In this document: piece by piece, positions 37,227 through 55,392 of the stretch | How positions within the stretch are numbered: the stretch's first letter is position 1 | Layout of the letters: every line of letters begins with the position of its first letter | Made by a program: the position numbers and the translations under genes | Source: Bacteroidota bacterium | Lineage (GTDB): Bacteria > Bacteroidota > Bacteroidia > AKYH767-A > OLB10 | Reading direction: 5' to 3' | Length of the DNA stretch: 64,000 nucleotides | Assembly: GCA_046303115.1 (NCBI GenBank) | Contig: JBKCGZ010000100.1 | Coordinates: 10,928-74,927, forward strand | The notes under the pieces: generated by a model | The model's database searches: none | The model's input: only the letters and a program-made list of their open reading frames with translations | What the model was told of the DNA's origin: nothing

Positions 37227-37245
37227 AGGCGCACCAAAAATAAAA

Positions 37246-37387
37246 CAGGGGGCCTCCGAGCCCCCGCCCGCAATAAATTTAATCGTTCTAAAAACCACTC
37301 ACAAATTTTATCCGATCTTAACTGTTTGTTGTCGGATAATTCAATTTACTAATTCATTCTTAAGAGCTTAATATTTTAACAAATCGG
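37246..37387. repeat. Intergenic element copy A (GC-rich hairpin + 50-nt conserved core)
   Basis: CAGGGGGCCTCCGAGCCCCCGCCC...ATCTTAACTGTTTGTTGTCGGATAATTCAATTTACTAATTCATTCTTAAG...TTTTAACAAATC. It repeats 208 bp downstream. Confidence 0.85.
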
Positions 37388-37453
37388 AATTATTATATTA
37401 GGATTAAATGAACCCTAATAAACTTAATAATAAAGAAACTTCCTTCTTTAAAT

Positions 37454-37594
37454 CAGGGGGCCTCCGAGCCCCCGCCCACAATAAAATTAACTGATTAAAA
37501 AATAACTGCCAAATTCAAATCAATCTTAACTGTTTGTTGTCGGATAATTCAATTTACTAATTCATTCTTAAGTAATTTGCTTTTTAACAAATCC
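37454..37594. repeat. Intergenic element copy B
   Basis: Same hairpin (one substitution in the flanking GCCC[G/A]CAATAAA), an identical 50-nt core, and a divergent ~45-nt middle segment. Confidence 0.85.
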
Positions 37595-40033: not shown

Positions 40034-40468
40034 TTATCGCTTACTCCTAAAATAGTTTACAATTATCTCGCTGCACTCATCGGCTAATACTCCTTGGACG
40101 TATTCGGTCTGTGGGTGCAACTTTATTCCCTGACTTAAGAATCCCCTTTTCTCATCCTTGGCACCTACTACAATTCGATCGATTTGCGTCCAGTAGGAAG
40201 CCCCACTGCACATCGTGCAAGGCTCTAAGGTCACGTACAAAGTACATCCTTTAAGGTATTTCCCTCCAATCGCTTCAGCCGCCGCAGTGAAAGCCATCAT
40301 CTCCGCATGAGCGGTTACATCATTCAGCCTTTCAACCATATTGTGCGAACGCGCAACTATTCTTCCATTGGCAACAATCACAGCCCCTATCGGAACTTCA
40401 TCCGCAGCTAAGGCCTTTCCAGCTTCTGCCAATGCGTGGCGCATAAAATATTCGTCGTCTAAAATCAC
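40034..40468 (-). CDS. tadA: tRNA adenosine(34) deaminase
   Basis: 144 aa with HAEMMA and PCTMCSGA zinc-binding motifs. Confidence 0.92.
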   Translation of the reverse strand: MILDDEYFMRHALAEAGKALAADEVPIGAVIVANGRIVARSHNMVERLNDVTAHAEMMAFTAAAEAIGGKYLKGCTLYVTLEPCTMCSGASYWTQIDRIVVGAKDEKRGFLSQGIKLHPQTEYVQGVLADECSEIIVNYFRSKR

Positions 40469-43584: not shown

Positions 43585-44835
43585 TTAACTATTAGATCGT
43601 ATCGCCTCCACTGGATCTAACCTCGAAGCCTGATAAGCGGGAACTAATCCTGAAATAACACCGACTATAACGGATACGGATAGCCCCAAAACAATATTAC
43701 CAGCACTTAATGGTAAATTGAGTCCTGCATATTTACCCGCAATGGTTCCGAGGTAAACGAGGAATAAACCAATGAGTCCGCCTAAAACACAAAGGAATAC
43801 CGACTCTGATAAAAACTGAAACAGAATAAAAAAGTTCTTTGCGCCTAATGATTTTTGAATTCCGATAATGGTAGTTCTTTCTTTCACTGATACGAACATA
43901 ATATTAGCAATACCAAAACCCCCAACAAGAATACTAAAACTTCCGATAATCCATCCTGCTTTAGTAAGCATTGCAAATAAACTATTCAGCTGATTAGAAA
44001 TTAATTTTGTCTCGTTCAAAGCAAAGTTATCTTCTTCTGCGGGACGCAAACGACGAATAGAACGCAAGTTTCCTTTTAACTCATCCATTAACTGTCCGTT
44101 GGAAATACCTGGCTTGCCTTTCACCATAATGCGTGGCTCTAACTGATCGCTTCTGATATCTAAAAAGCGACGTGCGAAATTTACAGGCACCATCACCGAT
44201 TTATCTTTTGAGTTCCCCAACATACTTTCCCCCTCTTTAACAAAAACACCAATCACAATAAACTTTCTTCCTTTCACAGTGATACTTTTTCCGACAGGAT
44301 CCACATTAGGAATTAATGTAGAAGCTACATCGGCACCAATGATGGCTACAGGCGAACCAGCAGAAGATTCATTCTCGGTAAAATAACGACCGTTAGATAA
44401 ATTGATCGTATATAGCTTTTCATAATCGTGAGAAACCATATCGACCGTTGCACTTTCAACTGCATTTTTTCCTGATTTCACTGTTACATCGTTCGCCGTT
44501 GCGCTGAAGGCAAAACTTTCTCCTAAGGCGCTACGTTGCTTCAGCAATTCCATTTCTTTGTAGTTGGCTGTTGGACGCACCCAATATTTCCACCACGGAA
44601 AATCCTTCCCAAACTCCCACGGCCATTTCTCAACGAATACCACATTACTCCCCATCTCATTTACGCTGCTACGAATTTTATTTTCTAATCCATCTACCGC
44701 AGTAAAAACAGCAATGATGGCAAAAATTCCGATGGTAACTCCTAATAGCGAAAGAATAGTACGCAGCTTATTCACCACCAATGCATGAATGGCCATCAGC
44801 ACGCTCTCGCGTAAAAGTCGTAGGTAAATTTTCAT
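43585..44835 (-). CDS. ABC transporter permease, MacB/FtsX family
   Basis: 416 aa. N-terminal TM, large periplasmic MacB-PCD-like region, and a C-terminal FtsX 3-TM bundle. No adjacent ATPase. Confidence 0.8.
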   Translation of the reverse strand: MKIYLRLLRESVLMAIHALVVNKLRTILSLLGVTIGIFAIIAVFTAVDGLENKIRSSVNEMGSNVVFVEKWPWEFGKDFPWWKYWVRPTANYKEMELLKQRSALGESFAFSATANDVTVKSGKNAVESATVDMVSHDYEKLYTINLSNGRYFTENESSAGSPVAIIGADVASTLIPNVDPVGKSITVKGRKFIVIGVFVKEGESMLGNSKDKSVMVPVNFARRFLDIRSDQLEPRIMVKGKPGISNGQLMDELKGNLRSIRRLRPAEEDNFALNETKLISNQLNSLFAMLTKAGWIIGSFSILVGGFGIANIMFVSVKERTTIIGIQKSLGAKNFFILFQFLSESVFLCVLGGLIGLFLVYLGTIAGKYAGLNLPLSAGNIVLGLSVSVIVGVISGLVPAYQASRLDPVEAIRSNS

Positions 44836-44974
44836 TGGGGTAAAGGTACGATAGTTTGATTAGGTAAGGGGCATAGAGTTCAATAAAAACAATATCTATG
44901 GTTTGTTCTACAGGTTGTTAATAACCATCATTACATCGGCTATCACAATTCCCCATTTTTATTATTTTTAAAAT

Positions 44975-46141
44975 ATGAAAACAAAACTCCAATTTTTAAC
45001 TACACTATTTTTCATTGTTTTTTGCAATGGAAATTTGTTTGCGCAGCAAATAGGTCATACTACATTTACCTATACAGATGCATCGCGAAATAACAGACAA
45101 ATACAAACGGAAATTTATTATCCTGCAACAGCAGCAGGAAATAATACAGCGATTGCTCCGGGAACTTTTCCTGTGGTAGTTTGCGGACATGGATTTGTAA
45201 TGACAACGAGTGCTTATCAAAATATATGGACAGCACTTGTGCCCGAAGGTTATATCGTTGCGCTCCCAACAACAGAAGGTGGATTCGCCCCCAATCATGC
45301 TAATTTCGGGCTCGACTTAAAGTTTTTGGTTAATGAAATTAAAAGCGCTGGGGCAGGAACATCAGTTCCTCCATCCTCTGTAGGAAACACCTCTGCTATT
45401 ATGGGACATTCGATGGGTGGTGGATCTTCTTTTCTGGCAGCGGCTAATGATACTACTATTTCTACCATGATATCTTTTGCGGCCGCAAATACAAATCCCT
45501 CATCAATAAGCGCTGCACAGAATATTATTGTTCCTACATTAATATTTAGTGGCACCAACGATTGTGTAGCTCCTCCAGCGCCGCAACAAGATATTATGTA
45601 TGATTCAACAAGTGCTGCTTATAAAACTCAGATTTATATTTCAGGTGGTGGACATTGTTATTTTGCTGATAATAATTTTAATTGCTCATTTGGTGAAGCG
45701 ACCTGCTCCCCTTCTCCAACAATTACTCGCACCCAACAACAATCTGCAACAGCTGATTTTTTAAAATCGTGGTTAGCCTACTATCTGAAAGGTGATTGTA
45801 ATAAAGCACAGGAATTTCAAGACTCACTCGCTTTAAGTGCAAGAATTACTTATCGCCAAAGCCAATCGATTGCATGTACATCATCAAGCATAGAAAATAT
45901 TTCTTCGGATAATATTTTTTCTGTTTATCCCAATCCTGCGAAAAGCATCATTAACGTAAAAGTAAATTCAAAAGCAGTAGATACATTTTATACAATCAAT
46001 GATATTGCTGGTAGAATTGTTTTACGTGGAAAAGTGGATGCAGAAAATATAACGATTGCAGTTGATCAGTTATCTGCAGGATTATACATTTTAAACCTGA
46101 AAAATAAATCACAACAGCAATTCAAAATAATTAAAGATTAA
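44975..46141 (+). CDS. Secreted PETase/cutinase-like serine esterase (dienelactone-hydrolase-type alpha/beta fold) with T9SS C-terminal sorting domain
   Basis: 388 aa with a signal peptide (...LFAQ), a GHSMGG nucleophile elbow (Ser codon 45410-45412), NDCVAP (Asp) and GGGHCYF (His). The last ~80 aa (FSVYPNPAKSIINVKV...GLYILNLKN...FKIIKD) match the Por_Secre_tail pattern. Confidence 0.75.
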   Translation: MKTKLQFLTTLFFIVFCNGNLFAQQIGHTTFTYTDASRNNRQIQTEIYYPATAAGNNTAIAPGTFPVVVCGHGFVMTTSAYQNIWTALVPEGYIVALPTTEGGFAPNHANFGLDLKFLVNEIKSAGAGTSVPPSSVGNTSAIMGHSMGGGSSFLAAANDTTISTMISFAAANTNPSSISAAQNIIVPTLIFSGTNDCVAPPAPQQDIMYDSTSAAYKTQIYISGGGHCYFADNNFNCSFGEATCSPSPTITRTQQQSATADFLKSWLAYYLKGDCNKAQEFQDSLALSARITYRQSQSIACTSSSIENISSDNIFSVYPNPAKSIINVKVNSKAVDTFYTINDIAGRIVLRGKVDAENITIAVDQLSAGLYILNLKNKSQQQFKIIKD

Positions 46142-46169
46142 ATGCTGAACTAATTTCTTAATAATACCT

Positions 46170-46248
46170 AATAAAAAAATCCCCGCTAACGCAGGGATTT
46201 TTTATTTACTCAGAAATTATTTTCTTATTTCTTATCTTGCGACATTAA
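46170..46248. repeat. Direct repeat, left copy (terminator hairpin + orphan SPFH 3'-end stub)
   Basis: ~95% identical to 54418-54495 in the same orientation. It includes hairpin ATCCCCGCTAACGCAGGGAT flanked by A- and T-runs, and it doubles as the terminator of the esterase gene. Confidence 0.9.
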
Positions 46249-46429
46249 TTTGCCTAAATATTTAGCGTTTACCCTTCAATAAAAGTAAAAAAGGTTTTAC
46301 AACTTTTTGGTAACAATACTTTAAAGTAATAGCTTTGTTTGACGCGTAAATAATCATCTACTACTAGCCATTAGTGGCAGTATAGTAAGTAAGCAAGTAA
46401 GAAATAATCAAGCAGTTAGGCGAACATAA

Positions 46430-47287
46430 ATGAACGAAACCATATACAATGACAAAGAAAAAAACGCCATTCGATTTTCTGACTTTAAAAAGTTAGAAAC
46501 AGATTGTCCGTTCGCTGGCTTGGGAGTAAAATATGTGGCTTCCGGTGAAGAAATTTATTATGCCAACAACAAAAAATACAATGTCAAAGTTGGAGAATAC
46601 ATTATTGGAAATGAGTTTACCAAATCACTGGTTAAAATTAACAGCGAAGAATCGGTTCAAGGACTTTGTATCGATATTTCATCTGAAATAATTTCAGAAG
46701 TAGCAGAATTTCACGATCTCAATGGTTCGGAGTTGAAAGAGTTCTTACTCTCCGATCAGTTTTTCGTCAACAGATACAATGTTAAAAATACCAGCTTGGG
46801 TTATACACTATACGATATTAACCAAAAGATTAAATCAGGAACATTTACTAATGATTTGCAACAAAACGAGTTGTTTTATAGTCTTGCAGAATCCATTATT
46901 ACCGACCAACGTTTTGTGTTTGATCATTTGACAAAACTGGATTTTAAAAAGAACTTAACTAATGAAGAAGTTTTTAGAACAGTACTCAATGCCAAATCAT
47001 ACATTGATGAAAATTTAACCGCGAATCTTTCGTTGGAAAACATTGCAATCCAAACAGGAATTTCAAAATATCACTTTATTCGTGTTTTTAAATCAGCTTT
47101 CGGTATTTCGCCCTATCAATATCAAAACCGAAAACGACTTGAACTAGCTAAATCAGACTTAGCACAAGGAAATGATATCTTTTTTACCGCAATTCTTTAT
47201 GGATTTGCTGATGTCCCAGCTTTCTCAAAAGCATTTAAACAGCAATTTGGACAAACTCCAGGATCGATAAGAAAAAGCAATTTTTGA
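46430..47287 (+). CDS. AraC family transcriptional regulator
   Basis: 285 aa with a C-terminal double HTH (LSLENIAIQTGISKYHFIRVFKSAFGISPYQY...FADVPAFSKAFKQQFGQTP). Confidence 0.88.
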   Translation: MNETIYNDKEKNAIRFSDFKKLETDCPFAGLGVKYVASGEEIYYANNKKYNVKVGEYIIGNEFTKSLVKINSEESVQGLCIDISSEIISEVAEFHDLNGSELKEFLLSDQFFVNRYNVKNTSLGYTLYDINQKIKSGTFTNDLQQNELFYSLAESIITDQRFVFDHLTKLDFKKNLTNEEVFRTVLNAKSYIDENLTANLSLENIAIQTGISKYHFIRVFKSAFGISPYQYQNRKRLELAKSDLAQGNDIFFTAILYGFADVPAFSKAFKQQFGQTPGSIRKSNF

Positions 47288-47334
47288 CAAATGAAACTAC
47301 GAATGATGTTTTTTCTTTGAAACAAAAATTTTTA

Positions 47335-49695
47335 ATGTTTCGAAAACTATCCTTACTCGTCCTATTCATTATTTCTCTTGATGTTAATGCTCAGCTACAG
47401 CGTAAGCCTATTTGGGGCGCACGAATGGAATACGTTTCGGAAAATGGTAGTGCTGGATGTAAAGTGCAAAAAGTGTCGAGAGGGACAAGTGTTGCGTTAA
47501 AATTACAAGAAAAAGATCTTGTTTTAAAAATAGGAGATTCCAACTTTACATCTACAAACGATTTCATTAATTTATTTTTAAACTACTTGCCTAATCAAGA
47601 AGTTAAACTAACAGTACTGCGCGACAAAAAGAAAATAACTTTAAAAGCAAAAGCTGTTGCTCGTCCTTTTGAAACAGATGATAATGCAACCGTAATTTAT
47701 GATGAGGCCTCCTATAAAAATGGACAATTGCGTGTTATTATCAATAAACCGTTTAAAGAAAATAAAATGCCTGCTATGTTATTCATTCCAGGATATACAT
47801 GCAGCAGTATCGATGATTTGCCAAATAACCATCCTTACAAACGTATTGTGGATGCTTACGTAGATGCAGGTTATGTAACATTACGTATTGAAAAAAGCGG
47901 ATTAGGCGATAGCAAAAACACACCACCCTGCGAGTCGTGTGATTTACTGGATGAAATTGAAAATTTTGAGTCCGGGTTAAAAAAATTAAAGTCACTACCA
48001 TATGTCGATACCAATCAAATTATCGTTGTTGGACATTCGATGGGTGGAATTATAGCACCAGCAATTAGTGCTAAACATCAAGTTGCAGGTGTTGTTGTTT
48101 ATGGTACAACTGCTAAATCGTGGTTTGAATATCAAATCGAAATGTACCGCGTACAAAATGCATTAGCAGGAATGAATCCGATTGAAGTAGAGCAATCCGT
48201 AATAGAACAATACGATTTGAATTATCGCTACTTCGTAAAGAAAGAGAAACTCGAAGATCTTGCCAAGGATCCAAATATTGATAGTGTTTTACGCGCTACT
48301 TGGGAATACGATGGTAAAGGGAAAATTTACTCTCGAAACGCAGAGTATTGGAGACAGATACAAGATTATCCGCATTTAGAAAATTGGAAAAATACGACTG
48401 CAAAAGTTTTAGTTCAATTTGGCGAATCCGATTTTCAAGCATTTTCAAAAAGCGATCATCAGCAGATTGTAAATACGGTGAATCATTTTCATCCTGGTAA
48501 TGCTACATTAATGACATATCCATCGACTGATCATTATTTTGCTAAATCAGGATCTATGCAAGAGGCATATGACAAGTTTACGAATGGCAAAATTCAACAG
48601 TTATTCGATGAGTATAACAATGAAGTTGGATTATCTGCTGTAAGATGGAGCAATGAAATTTTATCAAAAAAGAATACCGTTAAACATTCAGAAAATGGTT
48701 GGAAAAAATTAAGTACTGATAGCTATCCAGGAAAGCAAGATGATATTACGTTCATCAATGAAATGGAAGGTTGGTATGTAAACGGCTATGGTAGTATTTA
48801 TCATACGCAAAATGGCGGAACAACTTGGGAAAAACAATTGGAATTAAAAGGAACATTTTTTCGCTGCATTGCTTTTGTTGATAGTTTACGAGGATTTGCA
48901 GGAACGGTTGGCACTGACTACTTTCCAAATGTTACGGATACCATTCCGTTATATGGGACTAACGATGGTGGTAAAACATGGAGTCCTGTAAATTACAAAG
49001 GGCCCTATGTAAAAGGACTTTGTGCTATTGAAGTTGTTAAAGAGCAATTCATCAATCATGGAAAAACTGATTACAAAATTCATATTTATGCAGTTGGTCG
49101 CGTTGGAAGTCCTGCAAATAGAATGGTGTCGCACGATGGTGGTTTAAGCTGGACATCATATAGTATGAACAACGATTGTAAAATGCTTTTTGATATAAAA
49201 ATGTTAGATAAGAATACTGGTTATGTTTGTGCAGCAACTGATGAAGATATTGAGAAATCAAATGCACTTATTTTAAAAACCATCGATGGAGGAATAACCT
49301 GGAAAAAAGTGTATCAATCCAATAGACCATATGAAACAACATGGAAGATTTCGTTTCCATCTGATAAGGTTGGTTATGTAACAATTCAATCATACAATCC
49401 TGATTCGTTAGCAAAACAACAACGCATTGCTAAAACAATTGATGGAGGTGAAACCTGGAAAGAAATCAATCTAGTTGAAGATGCGAATGCAAGGGAATTT
49501 GGTATTGGGTTTATCGATGAAAACCACGGCTTTGTTGGCACCATGAATAGTGGTTACGAAACTAAAGATGGCGGCTTAACATGGACGCCAATTAATCTAG
49601 GAAAGGCCTGCAATAAAATCAGGATTTATAAAAATGCAAATGGGAAAATTTATTGTTATTCAATTGGTGTAGATGTGATGAAGGGAGAGTTTTAA
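47335..49695 (+). CDS. Secreted PDZ-like / alpha-beta hydrolase / BNR (Asp-box) beta-propeller fusion protein
   Basis: Start moved to the ATG giving signal peptide MFRKLSLLVLFIISLDVNAQ. It has a PDZ-like segment, a GHSMGG hydrolase core, and six SxDxGxTW-type Asp-boxes in the C-terminal ~330 aa. Confidence 0.7.
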   Translation: MFRKLSLLVLFIISLDVNAQLQRKPIWGARMEYVSENGSAGCKVQKVSRGTSVALKLQEKDLVLKIGDSNFTSTNDFINLFLNYLPNQEVKLTVLRDKKKITLKAKAVARPFETDDNATVIYDEASYKNGQLRVIINKPFKENKMPAMLFIPGYTCSSIDDLPNNHPYKRIVDAYVDAGYVTLRIEKSGLGDSKNTPPCESCDLLDEIENFESGLKKLKSLPYVDTNQIIVVGHSMGGIIAPAISAKHQVAGVVVYGTTAKSWFEYQIEMYRVQNALAGMNPIEVEQSVIEQYDLNYRYFVKKEKLEDLAKDPNIDSVLRATWEYDGKGKIYSRNAEYWRQIQDYPHLENWKNTTAKVLVQFGESDFQAFSKSDHQQIVNTVNHFHPGNATLMTYPSTDHYFAKSGSMQEAYDKFTNGKIQQLFDEYNNEVGLSAVRWSNEILSKKNTVKHSENGWKKLSTDSYPGKQDDITFINEMEGWYVNGYGSIYHTQNGGTTWEKQLELKGTFFRCIAFVDSLRGFAGTVGTDYFPNVTDTIPLYGTNDGGKTWSPVNYKGPYVKGLCAIEVVKEQFINHGKTDYKIHIYAVGRVGSPANRMVSHDGGLSWTSYSMNNDCKMLFDIKMLDKNTGYVCAATDEDIEKSNALILKTIDGGITWKKVYQSNRPYETTWKISFPSDKVGYVTIQSYNPDSLAKQQRIAKTIDGGETWKEINLVEDANAREFGIGFIDENHGFVGTMNSGYETKDGGLTWTPINLGKACNKIRIYKNANGKIYCYSIGVDVMKGEF

Positions 49696-49835
49696 ATTAT
49701 GACTACTCTAAAAATTATTAAATTAAAATCAATTTTAATTTTTACACTACTTTTGAATTGACAAAATATGATTAACAAAGACATTGAAACAATAATCTAC
49801 AACTAAAAAATATCATCAATACAACTACTCAAAAT

Positions 49836-50708
49836 ATGGATTTAGTAATAAAAAATCTCAACAAGCAATATAGCAATGGTGTACATGCCATGAACGATGT
49901 AACTCTTACCATCAACAAAGGTATGTTTGGTTTGCTTGGGCCCAATGGCGCTGGTAAATCTTCTTTGATGCGCACCCTGGCAACACTTCAAAATGCTGAT
50001 AGTGGCTCTGTAATGCTTGGTGATATAGATGTTTTAAACGACCAAGAATCAGTAAGGAAAATCTTGGGCTATTTGCCACAAGAGTTTGGTGTATATCCGA
50101 GAACATCGGCTGTTGACTTACTTGAACATTTAGCTATACTAAAAGGTTTTAGCAACGGCAGTGAGCGAAAGGAAATGGTCGATCAATTGCTCAACAAAGT
50201 AAATCTATATGAACATCGTAAAAAAGCGGTGAGTAGTTATAGCGGTGGAATGCGCCAACGATTTGGTATTGCACAGTGTTTAATTGGCAATCCGAAATTG
50301 GTAATTGTAGATGAACCTACAGCAGGATTAGATCCAGGTGAGCGTAATCGCTTCTATAATATCTTAAGTGAAATTGGAGAGAATATCATTGTGATTTTAT
50401 CTACGCATATTGTACAAGATGTAAGAGAACTTTGCACACAAATGGCAATCATGAACAAGGGAAAAGTCTTGTTTTGTGGCAATACTGATGACGCCATACT
50501 TCAAATAAAAGGAAAAGTTTGGGAACGAAAAGTGGATAAAGATCAATTACAAGATTTTCAAACTAATTATAAAATTATTTCCAGCAAATTGGTTGGAGGA
50601 AAACCTTTAATTCATGCATTTTCTGAAAATGAATTAGGCAACGGATTTATCAAAGCGGAAGAAAATTTAGAAGATGTATTTTTCGCAAAACTGAATGAAT
50701 TAGTTTAA
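49836..50708 (+). CDS. ABC transporter ATP-binding protein
   Basis: 290 aa. Walker A GPNGAGKSS, signature YSGGMRQR, Walker B LVIVDEP. Confidence 0.93.
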   Translation: MDLVIKNLNKQYSNGVHAMNDVTLTINKGMFGLLGPNGAGKSSLMRTLATLQNADSGSVMLGDIDVLNDQESVRKILGYLPQEFGVYPRTSAVDLLEHLAILKGFSNGSERKEMVDQLLNKVNLYEHRKKAVSSYSGGMRQRFGIAQCLIGNPKLVIVDEPTAGLDPGERNRFYNILSEIGENIIVILSTHIVQDVRELCTQMAIMNKGKVLFCGNTDDAILQIKGKVWERKVDKDQLQDFQTNYKIISSKLVGGKPLIHAFSENELGNGFIKAEENLEDVFFAKLNELV

Positions 50709-50726
50709 TCACCAACCAAAAAAATT

Positions 50727-53700
50727 ATGTGGAATTTTATAAAACACGAATGGAAATATTGGCTCAGTTCGCCAATGACATGGATCTTTTTATTAATCAT
50801 CACTATTTTGGTGATGGGTGCTGTATCATCTGACAGCGTCACTATTGGTGGTGGTGTAGGTAGCGTTCATAAAAATGCGCCATTTGTAATTCAAACTTAT
50901 TACGGAGTTATGTCGCTCATTTGTTTGTTAATGACAACTGCATTTATGAATGCTTCAGCCAACAGAGACTTTTCAAGTGGTATGTATCAATTTGTTTTTT
51001 CATCGCCTATCAAAAAACGAGATTATTATTTCGGAAAATTTATTGGAGCTGCAAGCATAGCAGTATTGCCACTTTTAGGTGTTTCTATTGGTGCATTGAT
51101 TGGACCGTTGATGCCATGGGCAGAACCAAACCGCTATGGCGACGTTGTTTGGAGCGGGCATTTGCAAGGCCTAATCACATTTGGAATTCCAAATACAATT
51201 ATTGCTGCTGTACTTTTGTATTCGTTAGCCATTATTTTTCGAAGCAATATTGTTTCATTTGTTGGAGCAATGCTGATATTAGTATTGTATGCTGTATCTG
51301 CAGGATTTACTAGAGATATTGAAAAAGAATGGTTGGCAAATATTTTAGATCCATTTGGCTTTCGTCCTGAAACAATCATTTCAAAATACATGACGGTGGA
51401 TGAAAAAAATGCTCATGGCGTTCCGCTAGTTGGTGCTTTATTGATTAATCGATTGGTATGGCTATCAATAAGCTTTTTGATTTTAATTGGGGCTTACTTC
51501 AAATTTTCATTCAGCGTAAAAAATGAATCAGCTAAAAAAGCAAAAACGAAGGATACAAAAATTGAATCGTTAAATAGTACTAATCGTATTTATACAGCAA
51601 ACACTGCTAGTCAATTCTCGCTTTCTGCTTTGTGGTTTTTAATAAAGTTTGAAACTAAAGCAATCATTAATAACTCTACGTTCATCATCATCGTTGTTAT
51701 TGGCTTAATGAATTTAGTCGCATCGTTAACAACATTTTCAGGTGGCTATGGAATAGAGCAATATCCTGTTACCTATAATGTAATTGATATCATTAGCGGT
51801 TCATTTTATTTATTCCTTATTGCCATTATTACTTTTTATACTGGTGTGTTAGTATGGAAGGAACGCGATGCGAAAATAAATGAAATACAAGACGCTACTC
51901 CTATTCAAACTTCACTGCTGTTCGTTTCGAAATTAGCAGCTATCATTTTTTCGATTGCCTTGATTTTGTCTTGCACAATATTAATTGGCATAATCGCACA
52001 AGCATGTATGGGATATCATCGTTATGAAATTGATGTATATGTTAAATCCTTGCTAGTAAAAGATTTACTTTCTTTCTCTTTCCTTGTAATCATTTCTTTG
52101 TTTTTCCATTACCTAATCAACAATCGCTATATCGCTTACTTCGCATTTGTAGCCTTTGTTATTTTGAATTCATTTATTTGGGGTGTTTTAAAAATCAATT
52201 CTAATCTTGTAAAATTTGGAGGAACTCCCACTGTTACCTATTCCGACATGAATGGATTTGGTCCGTTTGTACCTTCAAGTATATGGTTCAATATTTATTG
52301 GACAATTGCTTCTGTGTTGATTGGCTTTGTAATTTTTTCATTCTATATACGAGGTAAAGAAACTGGCTTTAGACATCGACTTGTAAACTCAAAATATTTG
52401 TTGACCAAAAATAAAATCGCCATTGGCTTATGTGCAATTGTGTTCGTGCTGTGTTGCAGTTTCATGTATTACAATACTAAAGTGGTAAACGAATATACTT
52501 CTGGTCAAGAGCAAGAAAACGATCAAGTTGATTATGAAAAAAAGTATAAAAAATATGAGACCTTGGTTCAGCCACGTTTCTATAAATACAATTACAATAT
52601 CGATTTGATGCCATACGAGCGCAGCATGAGTGCCAATGTAGAAGCTTGGGCAAGAAATATTTCTAATCAACCGATAACTGAATTACATTTTACAATGCCT
52701 CAGGTACCTGATTCAGTAAAAATATTAATCGAAGGCAGCAAATTAAAATTGAATGATAGTCGATTAGGATATCGCATATATACGTTAGTAAAACCTTTGC
52801 AACCCAACGATTCAATCATGATTAAATTTGATGTGAGTCGTATCACCAAAGGATTTGAGAACGAAGTAACATTTACGCAACTTACGCAAAATGGAACATT
52901 CTTTAACAACAGAGATATATTACCCACTTTTGGCTATGAAAACGCATATGAAATAAGCGATAAAAATAAGCGTATAAAATTAAAGTTGCCTCCTCGATTA
53001 CGCATGCCTAAATTGAATGAACAAGATTTAAAAGCAAGAGCAAATACATATATCAGCAACTGTTCTGACTGGGTGGAATTAAACACAACTATCAGTACCA
53101 CTAAAGACCAAATAGCAATTGCTCCTGGCAGTTTAATTAAGTCTTGGGAGGCTAATGGCAAAAAATATTTCAATTATCAGCTCGAACAAAAATCATTGGA
53201 TTTCTATTCGTTCATTTCGGCGAAATATGAAGTAAAAAGAAAACGTTGGAATGGAATTGATTTGGAAGTTTATTATATCAAAGAGCATGAATACAATGTA
53301 TCCAACATGCTCAATAGTTTACAAAAATCAATTGACTACTACACGAGCAATTTTGGGAAGTATTACCACAAGCAATGTAGAATTATTGAGTTCCCACGTT
53401 ATGGAAGTTTTGCGCAAGCATTCCCAGGTACTATGCCTTATAGCGAAGGAATTGGTTTTATCATTGATGAAAGAAACGTTACTAAAGATGATATTGACCA
53501 AGTGTTCTATGTGGTAGCGCATGAAATGGCACATCAATATTGGGCGCATCAACTATGTGGCGCTAATATGCAAGGTAGTGAAATGATGAGTGAAGGATTT
53601 GCACAATATTCTGCTTTGATGGTTATGGAAAAAGAATACGGCAAGGATAAAATGAAGAAGTTTTTGAAGTACGAAATGGATGGTTATTTAAGAGGAAGAA

Positions 53701-54302
53701 GCAGTGAGTTTGAAGCAGAAAGACCTTTAATTAAAACAGAATCGCAACAGTATATTCATTATCAAAAAGCGAGTGTAGTTATGTACTATTTAAAGGAAAT
53801 GATTGGCGATAAGAAAGTGAATGAAGCCTTAAAATCCCTGATAGATTCTTTTGCATACAAGCAACCACCCTATCCAACATCAATTTCAGCTGTGAATGCT
53901 TTTAGAAAAGTAACACCTGATAGCCTACAATATCTAATTGATGATATGTTTGAAAACATCACTATTTTCTCCAACAGAACAATAGACACAAAGTATAAAA
54001 AGGTAGGTCAAGAATATGAAGTTACAATAACAACTACATCTGAAAAGTTCAGAGCTGATTCTTTAGGAAATGAAAAAAATAGAATTTTGAATGATTATAT
54101 TGATGTGGGCATCTTCGCAGAGCCAAGTAATAAAAATAACTTGGGTAAAGTTCTAGTTTATCAACGCATGAGAATAAATAAAAAAGATAACACTTTTGTA
54201 TTTAGAACGAAAGAAAAACCATATCAAGCAGGTATTGATCCATACAACTATTTAATTGATCGAATTCCAGATGATAATATTAAGAAGCTGGAGGAATTGT
54301 AG
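50727..54302 (+). CDS. Fusion protein: tandem ABC-2-type permease (~13 TM) + C-terminal M1-family gluzincin peptidase domain
   Basis: 1191 aa with about 13 hydrophobic segments in aa 1-580. The C-terminal part holds HEMAH (53520-53534) followed by SEGFA, the M1 signature. Confidence 0.8.
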   Translation: MWNFIKHEWKYWLSSPMTWIFLLIITILVMGAVSSDSVTIGGGVGSVHKNAPFVIQTYYGVMSLICLLMTTAFMNASANRDFSSGMYQFVFSSPIKKRDYYFGKFIGAASIAVLPLLGVSIGALIGPLMPWAEPNRYGDVVWSGHLQGLITFGIPNTIIAAVLLYSLAIIFRSNIVSFVGAMLILVLYAVSAGFTRDIEKEWLANILDPFGFRPETIISKYMTVDEKNAHGVPLVGALLINRLVWLSISFLILIGAYFKFSFSVKNESAKKAKTKDTKIESLNSTNRIYTANTASQFSLSALWFLIKFETKAIINNSTFIIIVVIGLMNLVASLTTFSGGYGIEQYPVTYNVIDIISGSFYLFLIAIITFYTGVLVWKERDAKINEIQDATPIQTSLLFVSKLAAIIFSIALILSCTILIGIIAQACMGYHRYEIDVYVKSLLVKDLLSFSFLVIISLFFHYLINNRYIAYFAFVAFVILNSFIWGVLKINSNLVKFGGTPTVTYSDMNGFGPFVPSSIWFNIYWTIASVLIGFVIFSFYIRGKETGFRHRLVNSKYLLTKNKIAIGLCAIVFVLCCSFMYYNTKVVNEYTSGQEQENDQVDYEKKYKKYETLVQPRFYKYNYNIDLMPYERSMSANVEAWARNISNQPITELHFTMPQVPDSVKILIEGSKLKLNDSRLGYRIYTLVKPLQPNDSIMIKFDVSRITKGFENEVTFTQLTQNGTFFNNRDILPTFGYENAYEISDKNKRIKLKLPPRLRMPKLNEQDLKARANTYISNCSDWVELNTTISTTKDQIAIAPGSLIKSWEANGKKYFNYQLEQKSLDFYSFISAKYEVKRKRWNGIDLEVYYIKEHEYNVSNMLNSLQKSIDYYTSNFGKYYHKQCRIIEFPRYGSFAQAFPGTMPYSEGIGFIIDERNVTKDDIDQVFYVVAHEMAHQYWAHQLCGANMQGSEMMSEGFAQYSALMVMEKEYGKDKMKKFLKYEMDGYLRGRSSEFEAERPLIKTESQQYIHYQKASVVMYYLKEMIGDKKVNEALKSLIDSFAYKQPPYPTSISAVNAFRKVTPDSLQYLIDDMFENITIFSNRTIDTKYKKVGQEYEVTITTTSEKFRADSLGNEKNRILNDYIDVGIFAEPSNKNNLGKVLVYQRMRINKKDNTFVFRTKEKPYQAGIDPYNYLIDRIPDDNIKKLEEL

Positions 54303-54417
54303 GTTATTTTTAAAGCGACATTTAAAAAAGTAATTAGAAAATAAATAAAAAATAATTTCCACTTTTAAATACAGTAATTCACAAATAGAAATAGTGTAAA
54401 CTTAGTTATTAAAGCTC

Positions 54418-54495
54418 AATAAAAAATCCCCGCTAACGCAGGGATTTTTTATTTACTCAGAAATTATTTTCTTATTTCTTGTCTTCCGACATCAA
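54418..54495. repeat. Direct repeat, right copy (terminator + genuine 3' end of SPFH gene)
   Basis: Matches 46170-46248. The minus strand encodes ...LMSEDKK* as the real C-terminus of the 54472..55392 gene. Confidence 0.9.
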
Positions 54496-55392
54496 CGTAT
54501 CCATGCCCATCATCTGACGCATTGTTTTTTGCATTCCTTCAGGAGAGCCATCTAAGAATAAAACATTTCCTTTTCCGTACTCTGCAAAATTCTTAATTGC
54601 TTCTGTCCACATCGAAAACATAATCATCGATGTATCAAGATTTGCCTGTTGCATTTCACGCGCTGCATTCTGCATACCCTTAGCCACCTCTTCTCTAAAC
54701 AACGCAACTCCTTGTCCGCGTAACTGCGCAGCCTCACGCTCTGCTTGCGCTGCAATTTTAATTGCGTTACCTTCTGCTTCTGCCGATTTTGTTTTAGTAA
54801 TTAATAAAGCTTGTCCTTCGTTTTCAGCTGCTGCCTTTAAATTGTTAGAAGCAACCACTTTACTCATCGATACCATTACTGCTTCATCAAATGTAATATC
54901 GTTGATTTGTAAATCTTGTAAGTGATATCCCCACTCTTCAATCACATTATCAATTTGCTCTTTTACGTGATCTACGATTTCACGACGAAGTCCTAATACT
55001 TCCGATTGCTTTTTAGTAGCAACGAAAGCACGAATGTTTCCTTCGATAGTTCTGATTAATGCTTGCATTAAATTCTTTTCATCGATGAACTTAAATGCTA
55101 CTTTCTTGATTGTCTCTTCATCGCTATCGATAACCGAAAATAAAATCATCGATTTAAAATACACATTCGCTTGATCGACAGTTACCGCCTGAAACTCTAA
55201 CTCGACTGAACGATTCTGAGTAGAAATTCTTTTGAATACTGTTTCGATGAAAGGAATGATAAAATTTAAACCCGGACGAATAATTCGCTGATATTTCCCG
55301 AAGATGGTGATTACGGAAACATTTCCTTGCTGGACTGTTCTCAAGCCCATGAATAGAATCACTACGATTCCAATAATAATTGCAGTTGACAT
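54472..55392 (-). CDS. SPFH domain / band 7 family protein
   Basis: 306 aa with an N-terminal TM, an SPFH core (GNVSVITIFGKYQRIIRPGLNFIIPF) and an Ala/Glu-rich coiled-coil. Confidence 0.88.
   Translation of the reverse strand: MSTAIIIGIVVILFMGLRTVQQGNVSVITIFGKYQRIIRPGLNFIIPFIETVFKRISTQNRSVELEFQAVTVDQANVYFKSMILFSVIDSDEETIKKVAFKFIDEKNLMQALIRTIEGNIRAFVATKKQSEVLGLRREIVDHVKEQIDNVIEEWGYHLQDLQINDITFDEAVMVSMSKVVASNNLKAAAENEGQALLITKTKSAEAEGNAIKIAAQAEREAAQLRGQGVALFREEVAKGMQNAAREMQQANLDTSMIMFSMWTEAIKNFAEYGKGNVLFLDGSPEGMQKTMRQMMGMDTLMSEDKK

Follow-up and report, generated by a model that had tools for sequence, protein, structure and literature searches.

Direct repeats around a four-gene block in a Bacteroidota genome are probably a scar of recombination in a variable locus between the MacB and SPFH genes

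The DNA analysed here is a 64,000-nucleotide (nt) stretch from a Bacteroidota bacterium (GenBank assembly GCA_046303115.1, contig JBKCGZ010000100.1, positions 10,928 to 74,927 of the forward strand), referred to below as the window. Within it a MacB-type ABC permease gene and an SPFH/Band_7 gene enclose an esterase gene followed by a block of four genes, which encode an AraC-family regulator, a PDZ/alpha-beta hydrolase/BNR-repeat protein (the hydrolase), an ABC transporter ATPase and an ABC-2 permease fused to an M1 aminopeptidase domain (permease/M1). The block lies between two direct repeats of about 79 bp, R_left and R_right, which are 8.2 kb apart; each contains a putative terminator and the last codons of the SPFH gene. 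An initial annotation, made from the letters of the window, had read these repeats as the attL and attR sites of a site-specific integration into the 3' end of the SPFH gene. Comparison with related genomes suggests that they are probably the scar of general recombination between two arrangements of a variable locus.

For this comparison 197 loci were fetched; the window's own lineage is called W and five further lineages are called B to F. The features of the locus are collected in Table 1. Pfam agrees with the genes first proposed for the block. The esterase carries a C-terminal sorting domain of the type IX secretion system (T9SS), also recognised by Pfam. The AraC and hydrolase genes form a conserved pair in dozens of relatives. 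Full-length homologues of permease/M1 (68-86% identity) are widespread in Bacteroidota, with the ATPase gene immediately upstream in every context checked, and the hydrolase-ABC-permease/M1 adjacency is also found in the more distant contigs L150 and L159. The hydrolase has two possible starts, a TTG at 47284, which overlaps the AraC stop and gives 803 aa, and an ATG 51 nt further on, at 47335; the latter, 786-aa form is that of the NCBI annotation and is also annotated in most relatives. In two same-species contigs a gene of the region is split into two open reading frames (ORFs) by a frameshift or assembly error (permease/M1 at L083 4382-7946; the M42 peptidase gene at L092 1427-2482), and in a distant relative the ABC ATPase and permease/M1 genes are separated by one for an IS200/IS605-type Y1 transposase (L103 9374-9856).

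Table 1. Features of the locus between the MacB and SPFH genes (positions in the window)
Feature	Position	Strand	Description
MacB-type ABC permease gene	43585..44835	-	Pfam MacB_PCD and FtsX; conserved left border
Esterase cassette	44861..46145	+	Promoter region and 388-aa PETase-like/dienelactone hydrolase, ORF 44975-46141; Pfam
Segment c	46146..46169		24 nt between esterase cassette and R_left
R_left	46170..46248	+	Orphan SPFH-terminator module; predicted hairpin 46174-46203; seen only in lineage W
Orphan stub	46225..46248	-	Last 7 SPFH codons and stop (LMSQDKK, stop), joined to no gene; read from the sequence
Segment e	46249..46428	+	180 nt upstream of AraC; W-specific; begins at joint 46248/46249
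AraC-family regulator	46430..47287	+	Pfam HTH_18/HTH_AraC
PDZ/alpha-beta hydrolase/BNR-repeat protein	47284..49695	+	Pfam; cluster members
ABC transporter ATPase	49836..50708	+	Pfam ABC_tran
ABC-2 permease fused to M1 aminopeptidase domain	50727..54302	+	1191 aa; Pfam
Segment g	54303..54417		Spacer from permease/M1 to terminator
R_right	54418..54495	+	Native, predicted bidirectional terminator (hairpin 54418-54453) and true SPFH last 7 codons and stop (54472-54495, minus strand)
SPFH/Band_7 gene	54472..55392	-	306 aa; Pfam; conserved right border, followed by gldD, ssb and mutY

Alignment of the two repeats bears out the differences first reported for them: the A-run of the left copy is longer by one A, and three positions are substituted. 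The substitutions all fall within the last 24 nt (46225-46248 compared with 54472-54495) and none in the 54-nt core, which is identical at every position (46180-46233 and 54427-54480, 54/54). A search of the window for this core, allowing up to three mismatches, returned two sites where none was expected from 100 shuffles. Read on the minus strand, the last 24 nt encode LMSQDKK and a stop at R_left, and LMSEDKK and a stop, the end of the SPFH protein, at R_right; two of the three stub differences (TTA and CAA) are found in none of the functional copies (those of W, B, C, D and E). The similarity had been described as stopping abruptly at all edges. This is so at the right edge of R_left, between 46248 and 46249, but at the left edge it fades out at the A-run; the 18 further bases added there by automatic repeat extension are not significantly similar (p=0.09).

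On either strand, both copies are predicted to fold into a hairpin with an A-run, a stem and a T-run (-14 to -25 kcal/mol; z -4.8 to -6.5); a simple terminator scan skipped it because of one internal stem mismatch. The layout is that of an intrinsic terminator, a G+C-rich stem-loop with an A-run upstream and a T-run downstream, situated between the convergent permease/M1 and SPFH genes, and from it we infer that both hairpins act as terminators. The hairpin of R_left lies 33 nt past the esterase stop and plausibly terminates that gene. Sequence reading and folding agree with the earlier description of the left copy as a stub that belongs to no gene and is so positioned that it could end transcription of the esterase gene.

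Neither of two trivial explanations of the repeat pair survives. The same two junctions are found base for base in independent assemblies (L081/L091, L092, L084, L093 and others, from JGI, ENA, NCBI and Logan samples) and short contigs only break inside the repeat, so that an assembly artefact can be rejected. A generic dispersed repeat of the REP or MITE kind, which the initial annotation had itself named as an alternative, is rejected as well: there are two copies in 64 kb, and among the 197 loci the sequence occurs only at the SPFH 3' end and on the esterase side in W.

All of the approximately 20 same-species contigs (identical SPFH or esterase protein) have the arrangement of the window, and no empty site, hybrid or circular junction was found among them. 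The other lineages are arranged differently. Lineage B (L107, about 94% nt identity to W) reads hydrolase-ABC-permease/M1-g-terminator-SPFH-gldD, its left side lying beyond the contig. Lineage C (L109-L111, 93-95.5% to W) reads MacB-esterase-[76-aa antitoxin and ParE, 727 bp]-terminator-SPFH-gldD and has no block. Lineage D (L193, flanks 85-89% to W) reads MacB-182 nt-AraC-hydrolase-ABC-permease/M1-[sigma70, DUF4097, 414-aa gene, antitoxin homologue]-terminator-SPFH. Lineage E (L194-L196, 87.7% overall with flank windows at 71-91%) reads [KilA-N, hsdS, fic/rhuM, hsdR]-128-nt hydrolase remnant-ABC-permease/M1-g-terminator-SPFH, and lineage F (L197, 94-96% to W) reads PK-M42-MacB-AraC-hydrolase-[PQQ/T9SS gene]-ABC upstream region.

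The SPFH side is collinear in B, C, D and E, and each of these (L107, L109-111, L193 and L194-196) has a single copy of the hairpin module at the SPFH 3' end; for B and E the single-copy state holds for the sequence at hand, their contigs stopping short of the left edge. This orthologous copy corresponds to R_right, which had rightly been taken as the functional 3' end of the SPFH gene, and among the 197 loci a second copy is seen only in lineage W. On the other side, homology with C, D and F extends from MacB to position 44860. The junction of MacB with AraC-hydrolase is present in D and F, and that of permease/M1 with g, terminator and SPFH in W, B and E. Segment g is 99% identical to W in B and 87% in E, with its first 44 nt common to D, and the permease/M1-g-terminator junction is thus old. 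By this distribution the block genes are residents of the MacB-SPFH locus and not a foreign cassette. The claim that the four genes arrived as one incoming unit is not supported, since B, D, E and F have these genes at the corresponding place.

Lineage C is the relative that comes nearest to an empty site. Its homology with the window, 95% at the nt level over the esterase cassette, halts at 46145 and resumes at 54415, so that relative to C the window has an additional 46146-54414, that is, one repeat copy plus the block. The initial annotation had proposed an ancestral order of esterase, terminator and SPFH without the block, and had suggested that an empty site be sought among relatives. Lineage C is indeed without the block and has one terminator copy, but it is not a clean empty site, because a 727-bp ParE toxin-antitoxin module lies between esterase and terminator, and the terminator itself is a different variant (loop TCGC, different spacer). 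No block remnants were found in the toxin-antitoxin region of C, and downstream of its esterase there is only a weak AT-rich hairpin. The antitoxin and ParE genes (L109 7832-8557, also in L110 and L111) stand exactly where the window has R_left and the block. A 77% identical homologue of the antitoxin lies beside the same terminator in lineage D (L193 20341-20616), where no ParE gene was called; the antitoxin-terminator junction, being common to C and D, must be old.

It is the esterase, and not the block, whose distribution is patchy; it was seen only in W and C and not in D and F, where AraC directly follows MacB. Its next-closest homologue in the protein database has 66% identity and is positioned after AraC-hydrolase. 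A more distant relative likewise has the order AraC-hydrolase-esterase-HNH (L112 376-5586), in which esterase and AraC-hydrolase are in the opposite order to the window.

Two short segments of the window are without counterparts. Segment c does not significantly resemble the stretch upstream of the terminator of any lineage, and homology to the flank of the lineage C terminator was rejected, the shared ATACCT not being significant. Segment e gave no BLAST match in any other locus examined; it was also considered as a divergent version of the 182 nt that separate MacB from AraC in D and F, but this was rejected, as only a 19-nt promoter-like match, not significant, was found (z about 1.2). Segment e contains a Bacteroidetes-type -7-like motif, TAGCTTTG, at about 46330-46337, some 90 nt upstream of AraC, with three GTAAG repeats near it, and a perfect 12-nt palindrome, CTAAATATTTAG, at 46254-46265, directly past the joint.

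Between the conserved borders, relatives carry a variety of further genes. In four lineages cassettes have been cleanly inserted into intergenic spacers: C has the toxin-antitoxin module, D the sigma cluster, E restriction-modification with fic and F the PQQ/T9SS gene. The last of these is a 1.8-kb insertion (L197 8650-10489) of a T9SS-secreted PQQ-like beta-propeller gene between the equivalents of window positions 49715 and 49725, that is, between hydrolase and ABC. The sigma cluster of D (L193 17016-20670) comprises sigma70_r4, DUF4097 and a 414-aa transglutaminase-like gene between permease/M1 and terminator; the 414-aa gene adjoins AraC-hydrolase in many other relatives (e.g. L116, L127, L140), which hints that the two are part of a wider functionally linked gene set. 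In E a 128-nt 3' remnant of the hydrolase gene (L194 6140-6268, equivalent to window 49567-49695) directly follows hsdR, which shows that the cluster of type I restriction-modification, fic and KilA-N genes displaced AraC-hydrolase there. The limits of homology with the window differ among lineages (46429 in D and F, 49567, 54346). The left limit of the repeat is the point at which the variable content of every lineage meets the conserved terminator, and the right limit falls arbitrarily within a coding sequence, 24 nt into the SPFH ORF.

Lineage E also contains a direct repeat of its own, 116 nt long and 94% identical (L194 2163-2278 and 3273-3388), which duplicates about 113 nt of the 5' end of hsdR on the far side of the inserted fic/rhuM gene of the type I restriction-modification operon and leaves an orphan 41-aa ORF. 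As this is the same kind of gene-end duplication as that in W, such events may not be rare in these genomes.

Beyond these lineages the searches were less informative. L001 and L002, two more distant genomes, still have SPFH and MacB linked, but separated by DUF2330 and an RnfD-like gene. A scan of a genome collection with SPFH gave, among the matches listed, none closer than 90% protein identity, and a metagenome scan with the hydrolase gave relatives at 59-87% identity only, which inform on gene pairs and not on junctions.

It is clear from the nucleotide identities that the locus is a recombination mosaic, with recent exchange of the ABC-permease/M1 pair across species-level lineages. The block (window 46429-54346) is 93-98% identical across lineages whose flanks are 71-91% identical (comparison with L193, L194 and L107). 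In the comparison of W with D, identity is 84-89% in the flanks and 93-98% in MacB and most of the block; between W and E, ABC-permease/M1 is 93-99% identical and the genes to the right 71-91%. Third-codon identities give the same picture. For W and E they are 93% in permease/M1 and 88% in ABC, and 53-79% in SPFH, GldD, SSB, MutY and RNase G; for W and D they are 94% in AraC, 93% in permease/M1 and 85% in MacB, and 66-74% in PK, M42 and SPFH. The W-E tract of high identity terminates inside SPFH, at about 54967. Taken together, the mosaic identity and this tract end indicate that homologous recombination has recently carried fragments of the region, some of them with an end in SPFH, from lineage to lineage. 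MacB occurs as two allele types, one of which is shared by W, C and D (about 95% nt identity); the allele of F is 87% identical at the nt level and 67% at third positions, although its neighbours PK and M42 are 96-97% identical to the window.

We consider it probable that the 79-bp repeat is a scar of general recombination, which joined two alternative arrangements of the MacB-SPFH locus, a variable and recombination-prone site in this group of freshwater Bacteroidota. The likely older arrangement is MacB, AraC-hydrolase-ABC-permease/M1 and terminator-SPFH, as read from the MacB-AraC junction in D and F together with the permease/M1-g-terminator-SPFH junction in W, B and E; compared with it, the part special to W is 44861-46428, which comprises the esterase cassette, c, R_left and e. 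In the second arrangement the T9SS-secreted esterase would have stood next to MacB. The locus in W would then be a fusion of MacB-esterase-terminator-seven SPFH codons with AraC through permease/M1-terminator-SPFH. A single non-homologous joint, at 46248/46249, would suffice, the remainder being continuous with sequence in relatives; the terminator would be duplicated because both parental arrangements ended with it, and the stub would be the chance end of a DNA fragment, 24 nt into SPFH. Each of the two parental types has a partial representative among the lineages with about 94% identity to W: C (esterase, no block) and F (block, no esterase).

Two mirror-image routes would lead to this structure. 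In the first, a MacB-esterase-terminator-stub fragment from an esterase-type relative would enter a block-type recipient, with a homology anchor at MacB and illegitimate joining of its far end upstream of AraC (homology-facilitated illegitimate recombination). In the second, the incoming DNA would be a circularised e-block-g-terminator-stub fragment, taken into an esterase-terminator-SPFH chromosome through one RecA crossover located in the 79 bp. Integration with one anchored and one illegitimate end, and circularisation with a RecA-dependent single crossover, are both documented fates of incoming linear DNA (PMC3240628), and the orphaned gene ends that such displacement leaves have been discussed (PMC5361080). 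The final structure fits either direction, and the first route is slightly preferred since the block is resident in four other lineages and a MacB anchor with an illegitimate far end is the ordinary topology. Afterwards the left hairpin would have been used as the esterase terminator and the stub would have decayed, while the core may have been kept identical to R_right by the recency of the event or by gene conversion. The combination of an identical core with diverged edges suggests either an older duplication with gene conversion or a recent event with fast decay of the stub.

Several points weigh against this reading. The exact esterase-terminator-SPFH parent was not found among the loci compared, C having the toxin-antitoxin module between and a different terminator variant. 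Segments e (180 nt) and c (24 nt) match nothing in these loci, and the block-type parent of W must therefore have had a region upstream of AraC unlike that of D and F. Finally, if substitutions were spread evenly over the 78 aligned positions, the chance that all three would land in the stub is about 0.03 by our own arithmetic, (24/78)^3; their confinement to the stub requires an additional assumption, either gene conversion or a donor whose SPFH gene ended differently.

Homology-facilitated illegitimate recombination is known from Acinetobacter, Streptococcus pneumoniae, Pseudomonas stutzeri and E. coli (PMC3240628) and has been called upon to explain orphaned gene ends in type VI secretion system (T6SS) and Rhs arrays (PMC5361080). 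The W locus resembles such cases in that one end of the novel DNA is continuous with a conserved flank (on the MacB or the SPFH side) and the other is an abrupt non-homologous joint, in that an orphaned gene end is left without mobility genes, and in that the locus is one of frequent homologous exchange. It differs in being known from sequence alone and in having a scar that includes a duplicated terminator, probably reused by another gene. It also resembles genomic-island or "flexible" hotspots, the conserved MacB and SPFH borders enclosing a set of genes that varies between lineages of 88-95% identity (esterase, ParE toxin-antitoxin, sigma/DUF4097 cluster, type I restriction-modification with fic, PQQ/T9SS gene); unlike in these hotspots, part of the content, AraC-hydrolase and ABC-permease/M1, consists of conserved genes with recent exchange between lineages. 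The locus is thus best classed as a scar that homologous and illegitimate recombination left at a flexible site with conserved genes on either side, and so as a further example of a type of event already known. By itself it opens no new question. It offers a small example from nature of the way in which uncultured freshwater Bacteroidota rearrange secreted-hydrolase, transporter, defence and toxin-antitoxin genes between two conserved genes, and one in which the conserved ABC-permease/M1 pair has recently crossed between species-level lineages.

The second route deserves weighing as an explanation in its own right, since it keeps the direction proposed in the initial annotation, that of an incoming block, and dispenses with a site-specific enzyme. 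Here a circularised 8.25-kb fragment of e, block, g, terminator and 24 nt of SPFH would have integrated by a Campbell-type crossover into an esterase recipient that had lost the block; it is a sub-variant of the favoured scar of general recombination, in the opposite direction. It would give exactly the observed structure, with the joint of the circle at 46248/46249 and the duplicated segment as the shared homology. As in Campbell-type integration, the insert lies between direct repeats of which one is on the intact gene and the other at the end of the fragment. Esterase-type chromosomes without the block exist (lineage C), the block shows recent gene flow between lineages, the mechanism of circularisation and RecA single crossover is documented (PMC3240628), and a similar gene-end duplication surrounds fic in lineage E. 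However, there is no plasmid or replicon, the circle being a self-ligated chromosomal fragment, and double-stranded DNA would have to enter, be joined at its ends and cross over within only 79 bp of homology. A clean esterase-terminator-SPFH recipient is also required, which was not seen in the loci compared, and the ancestor of W would have to lose and then regain genes that are resident here in B, D, E and F. For these reasons this course of events seems rather unlikely.

A purely local origin of R_left may also be envisaged. The esterase would already have stood beside AraC, and the 79-bp patch would have been copied from 8.2 kb away, either through a template switch at the hairpin or through ectopic gene conversion for which a similar earlier terminator was the seed. 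The core of R_left is identical to W's own R_right and differs from the terminators of B (two positions), C, D and E, which points to an intragenomic source or recent conversion; such a copy would moreover give the esterase a proper terminator, where lineage C has just its weak hairpin. On the other hand, there is no homology at the stub end by which a conversion tract could be resolved, the left limit is the natural limit of the terminator module and not an arbitrary point, and three substitutions in the stub are too many for a very recent copy. Local copying is accordingly judged a distinctly improbable source of the second repeat.

There remains the site-specific integration proposed at the outset, in which the repeats would be attL and attR of an integrase-less cassette, similar to a cis-mobilisable element (CIME), that was inserted at the SPFH 3' end by a recombinase encoded elsewhere and brought a replacement gene end. 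Elements that integrate into the 3' ends of tRNA or protein genes, such as e14 and phage 21 in icd, show this geometry. The W locus shares it with prophages, integrative and conjugative elements (ICEs), integrative and mobilisable elements (IMEs) and CIMEs: there are direct repeats at both ends of the block, the right one overlaps the SPFH stop, the SPFH gene is intact or restored, and an orphan stub stands at the far end. In addition, a relative (C) has no block at this site and the block is unusually similar across lineages.

The content of the block and its relatives do not bear this out. Pfam searches covered the ORFs from 1.4 to 29.5 kb and ten genes from 43.6 to 57.6 kb, with precomputed annotation of identical contigs for about 36-64 kb, and in these ranges, 1.4-29.5 kb and about 36-64 kb, they turned up neither an integrase nor a transposase domain. 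No tRNA was found in the whole window by ARAGORN, no Rfam match to a known RNA anywhere in it, and no inverted repeat; within the block, this agrees with the initial annotation, which had seen no integrase, transposase, tRNA or inverted repeat there. A departure of the block from its flanks in composition, which would have pointed to a foreign origin, is not found either: its GC content (0.33-0.36), third-position GC content (GC3; z -0.6 to +0.1) and low codon-usage distance are typical of the window, and composition sets apart neither the block nor the esterase. An origin from a phage or plasmid likewise found no close match, the plasmid homologues all being below 40% identity and no phage matching the block, and the 79-bp repeat is absent from the viral contigs searched.

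The cargo consists of conserved chromosomal genes of native composition. These same genes were not seen bounded by the same repeats elsewhere; in D, E, F and B they occupy the same locus with one terminator copy on the sequence at hand. The homology limits vary by lineage (46429, 49567, 54346), as those of homologous-recombination tracts do and unlike a fixed att site, and neither a clean empty site among the loci compared nor any hybrid, empty or circular junction in the same-species contigs was found. The repeats are most likely not a pair of att sites, and site-specific integration is not supported; as an account of this locus we regard it as very unlikely. Blocks bounded by repeats that duplicate the 3' end of a gene can mimic the footprint of integration, and if the repeat alone were taken as grounds for calling them "islands", native genes would wrongly be labelled mobile. 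Here the relatives show the enclosed genes to be long-term residents, and the repeat more probably arose incidentally, when alternative arrangements recombined with each other. The wider proposal that the 79-bp repeats and the 116-nt hsdR-end duplication reveal an unrecognised trans-acting recombination system of freshwater Bacteroidota, which would move integrase-less cassettes into gene ends while restoring the gene and would also explain a near-identical four-gene block across lineages otherwise 85-88% identical, is very improbable.

Two other features of the window were observed. A second local direct repeat of 145 nt, 83% identical and with its copies 208 nt apart (37241-37385 and 37449-37593), lies in the long spacer after a tRNA-synthetase gene; each copy holds a G+C-rich hairpin (CAGGGGGCCTCCGAGCCCCCG) with no Rfam match. 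The dCMP/cytidine deaminase gene at 40034-40444 is a compositional outlier in the window (GC 0.48, GC3 z = +3.4).

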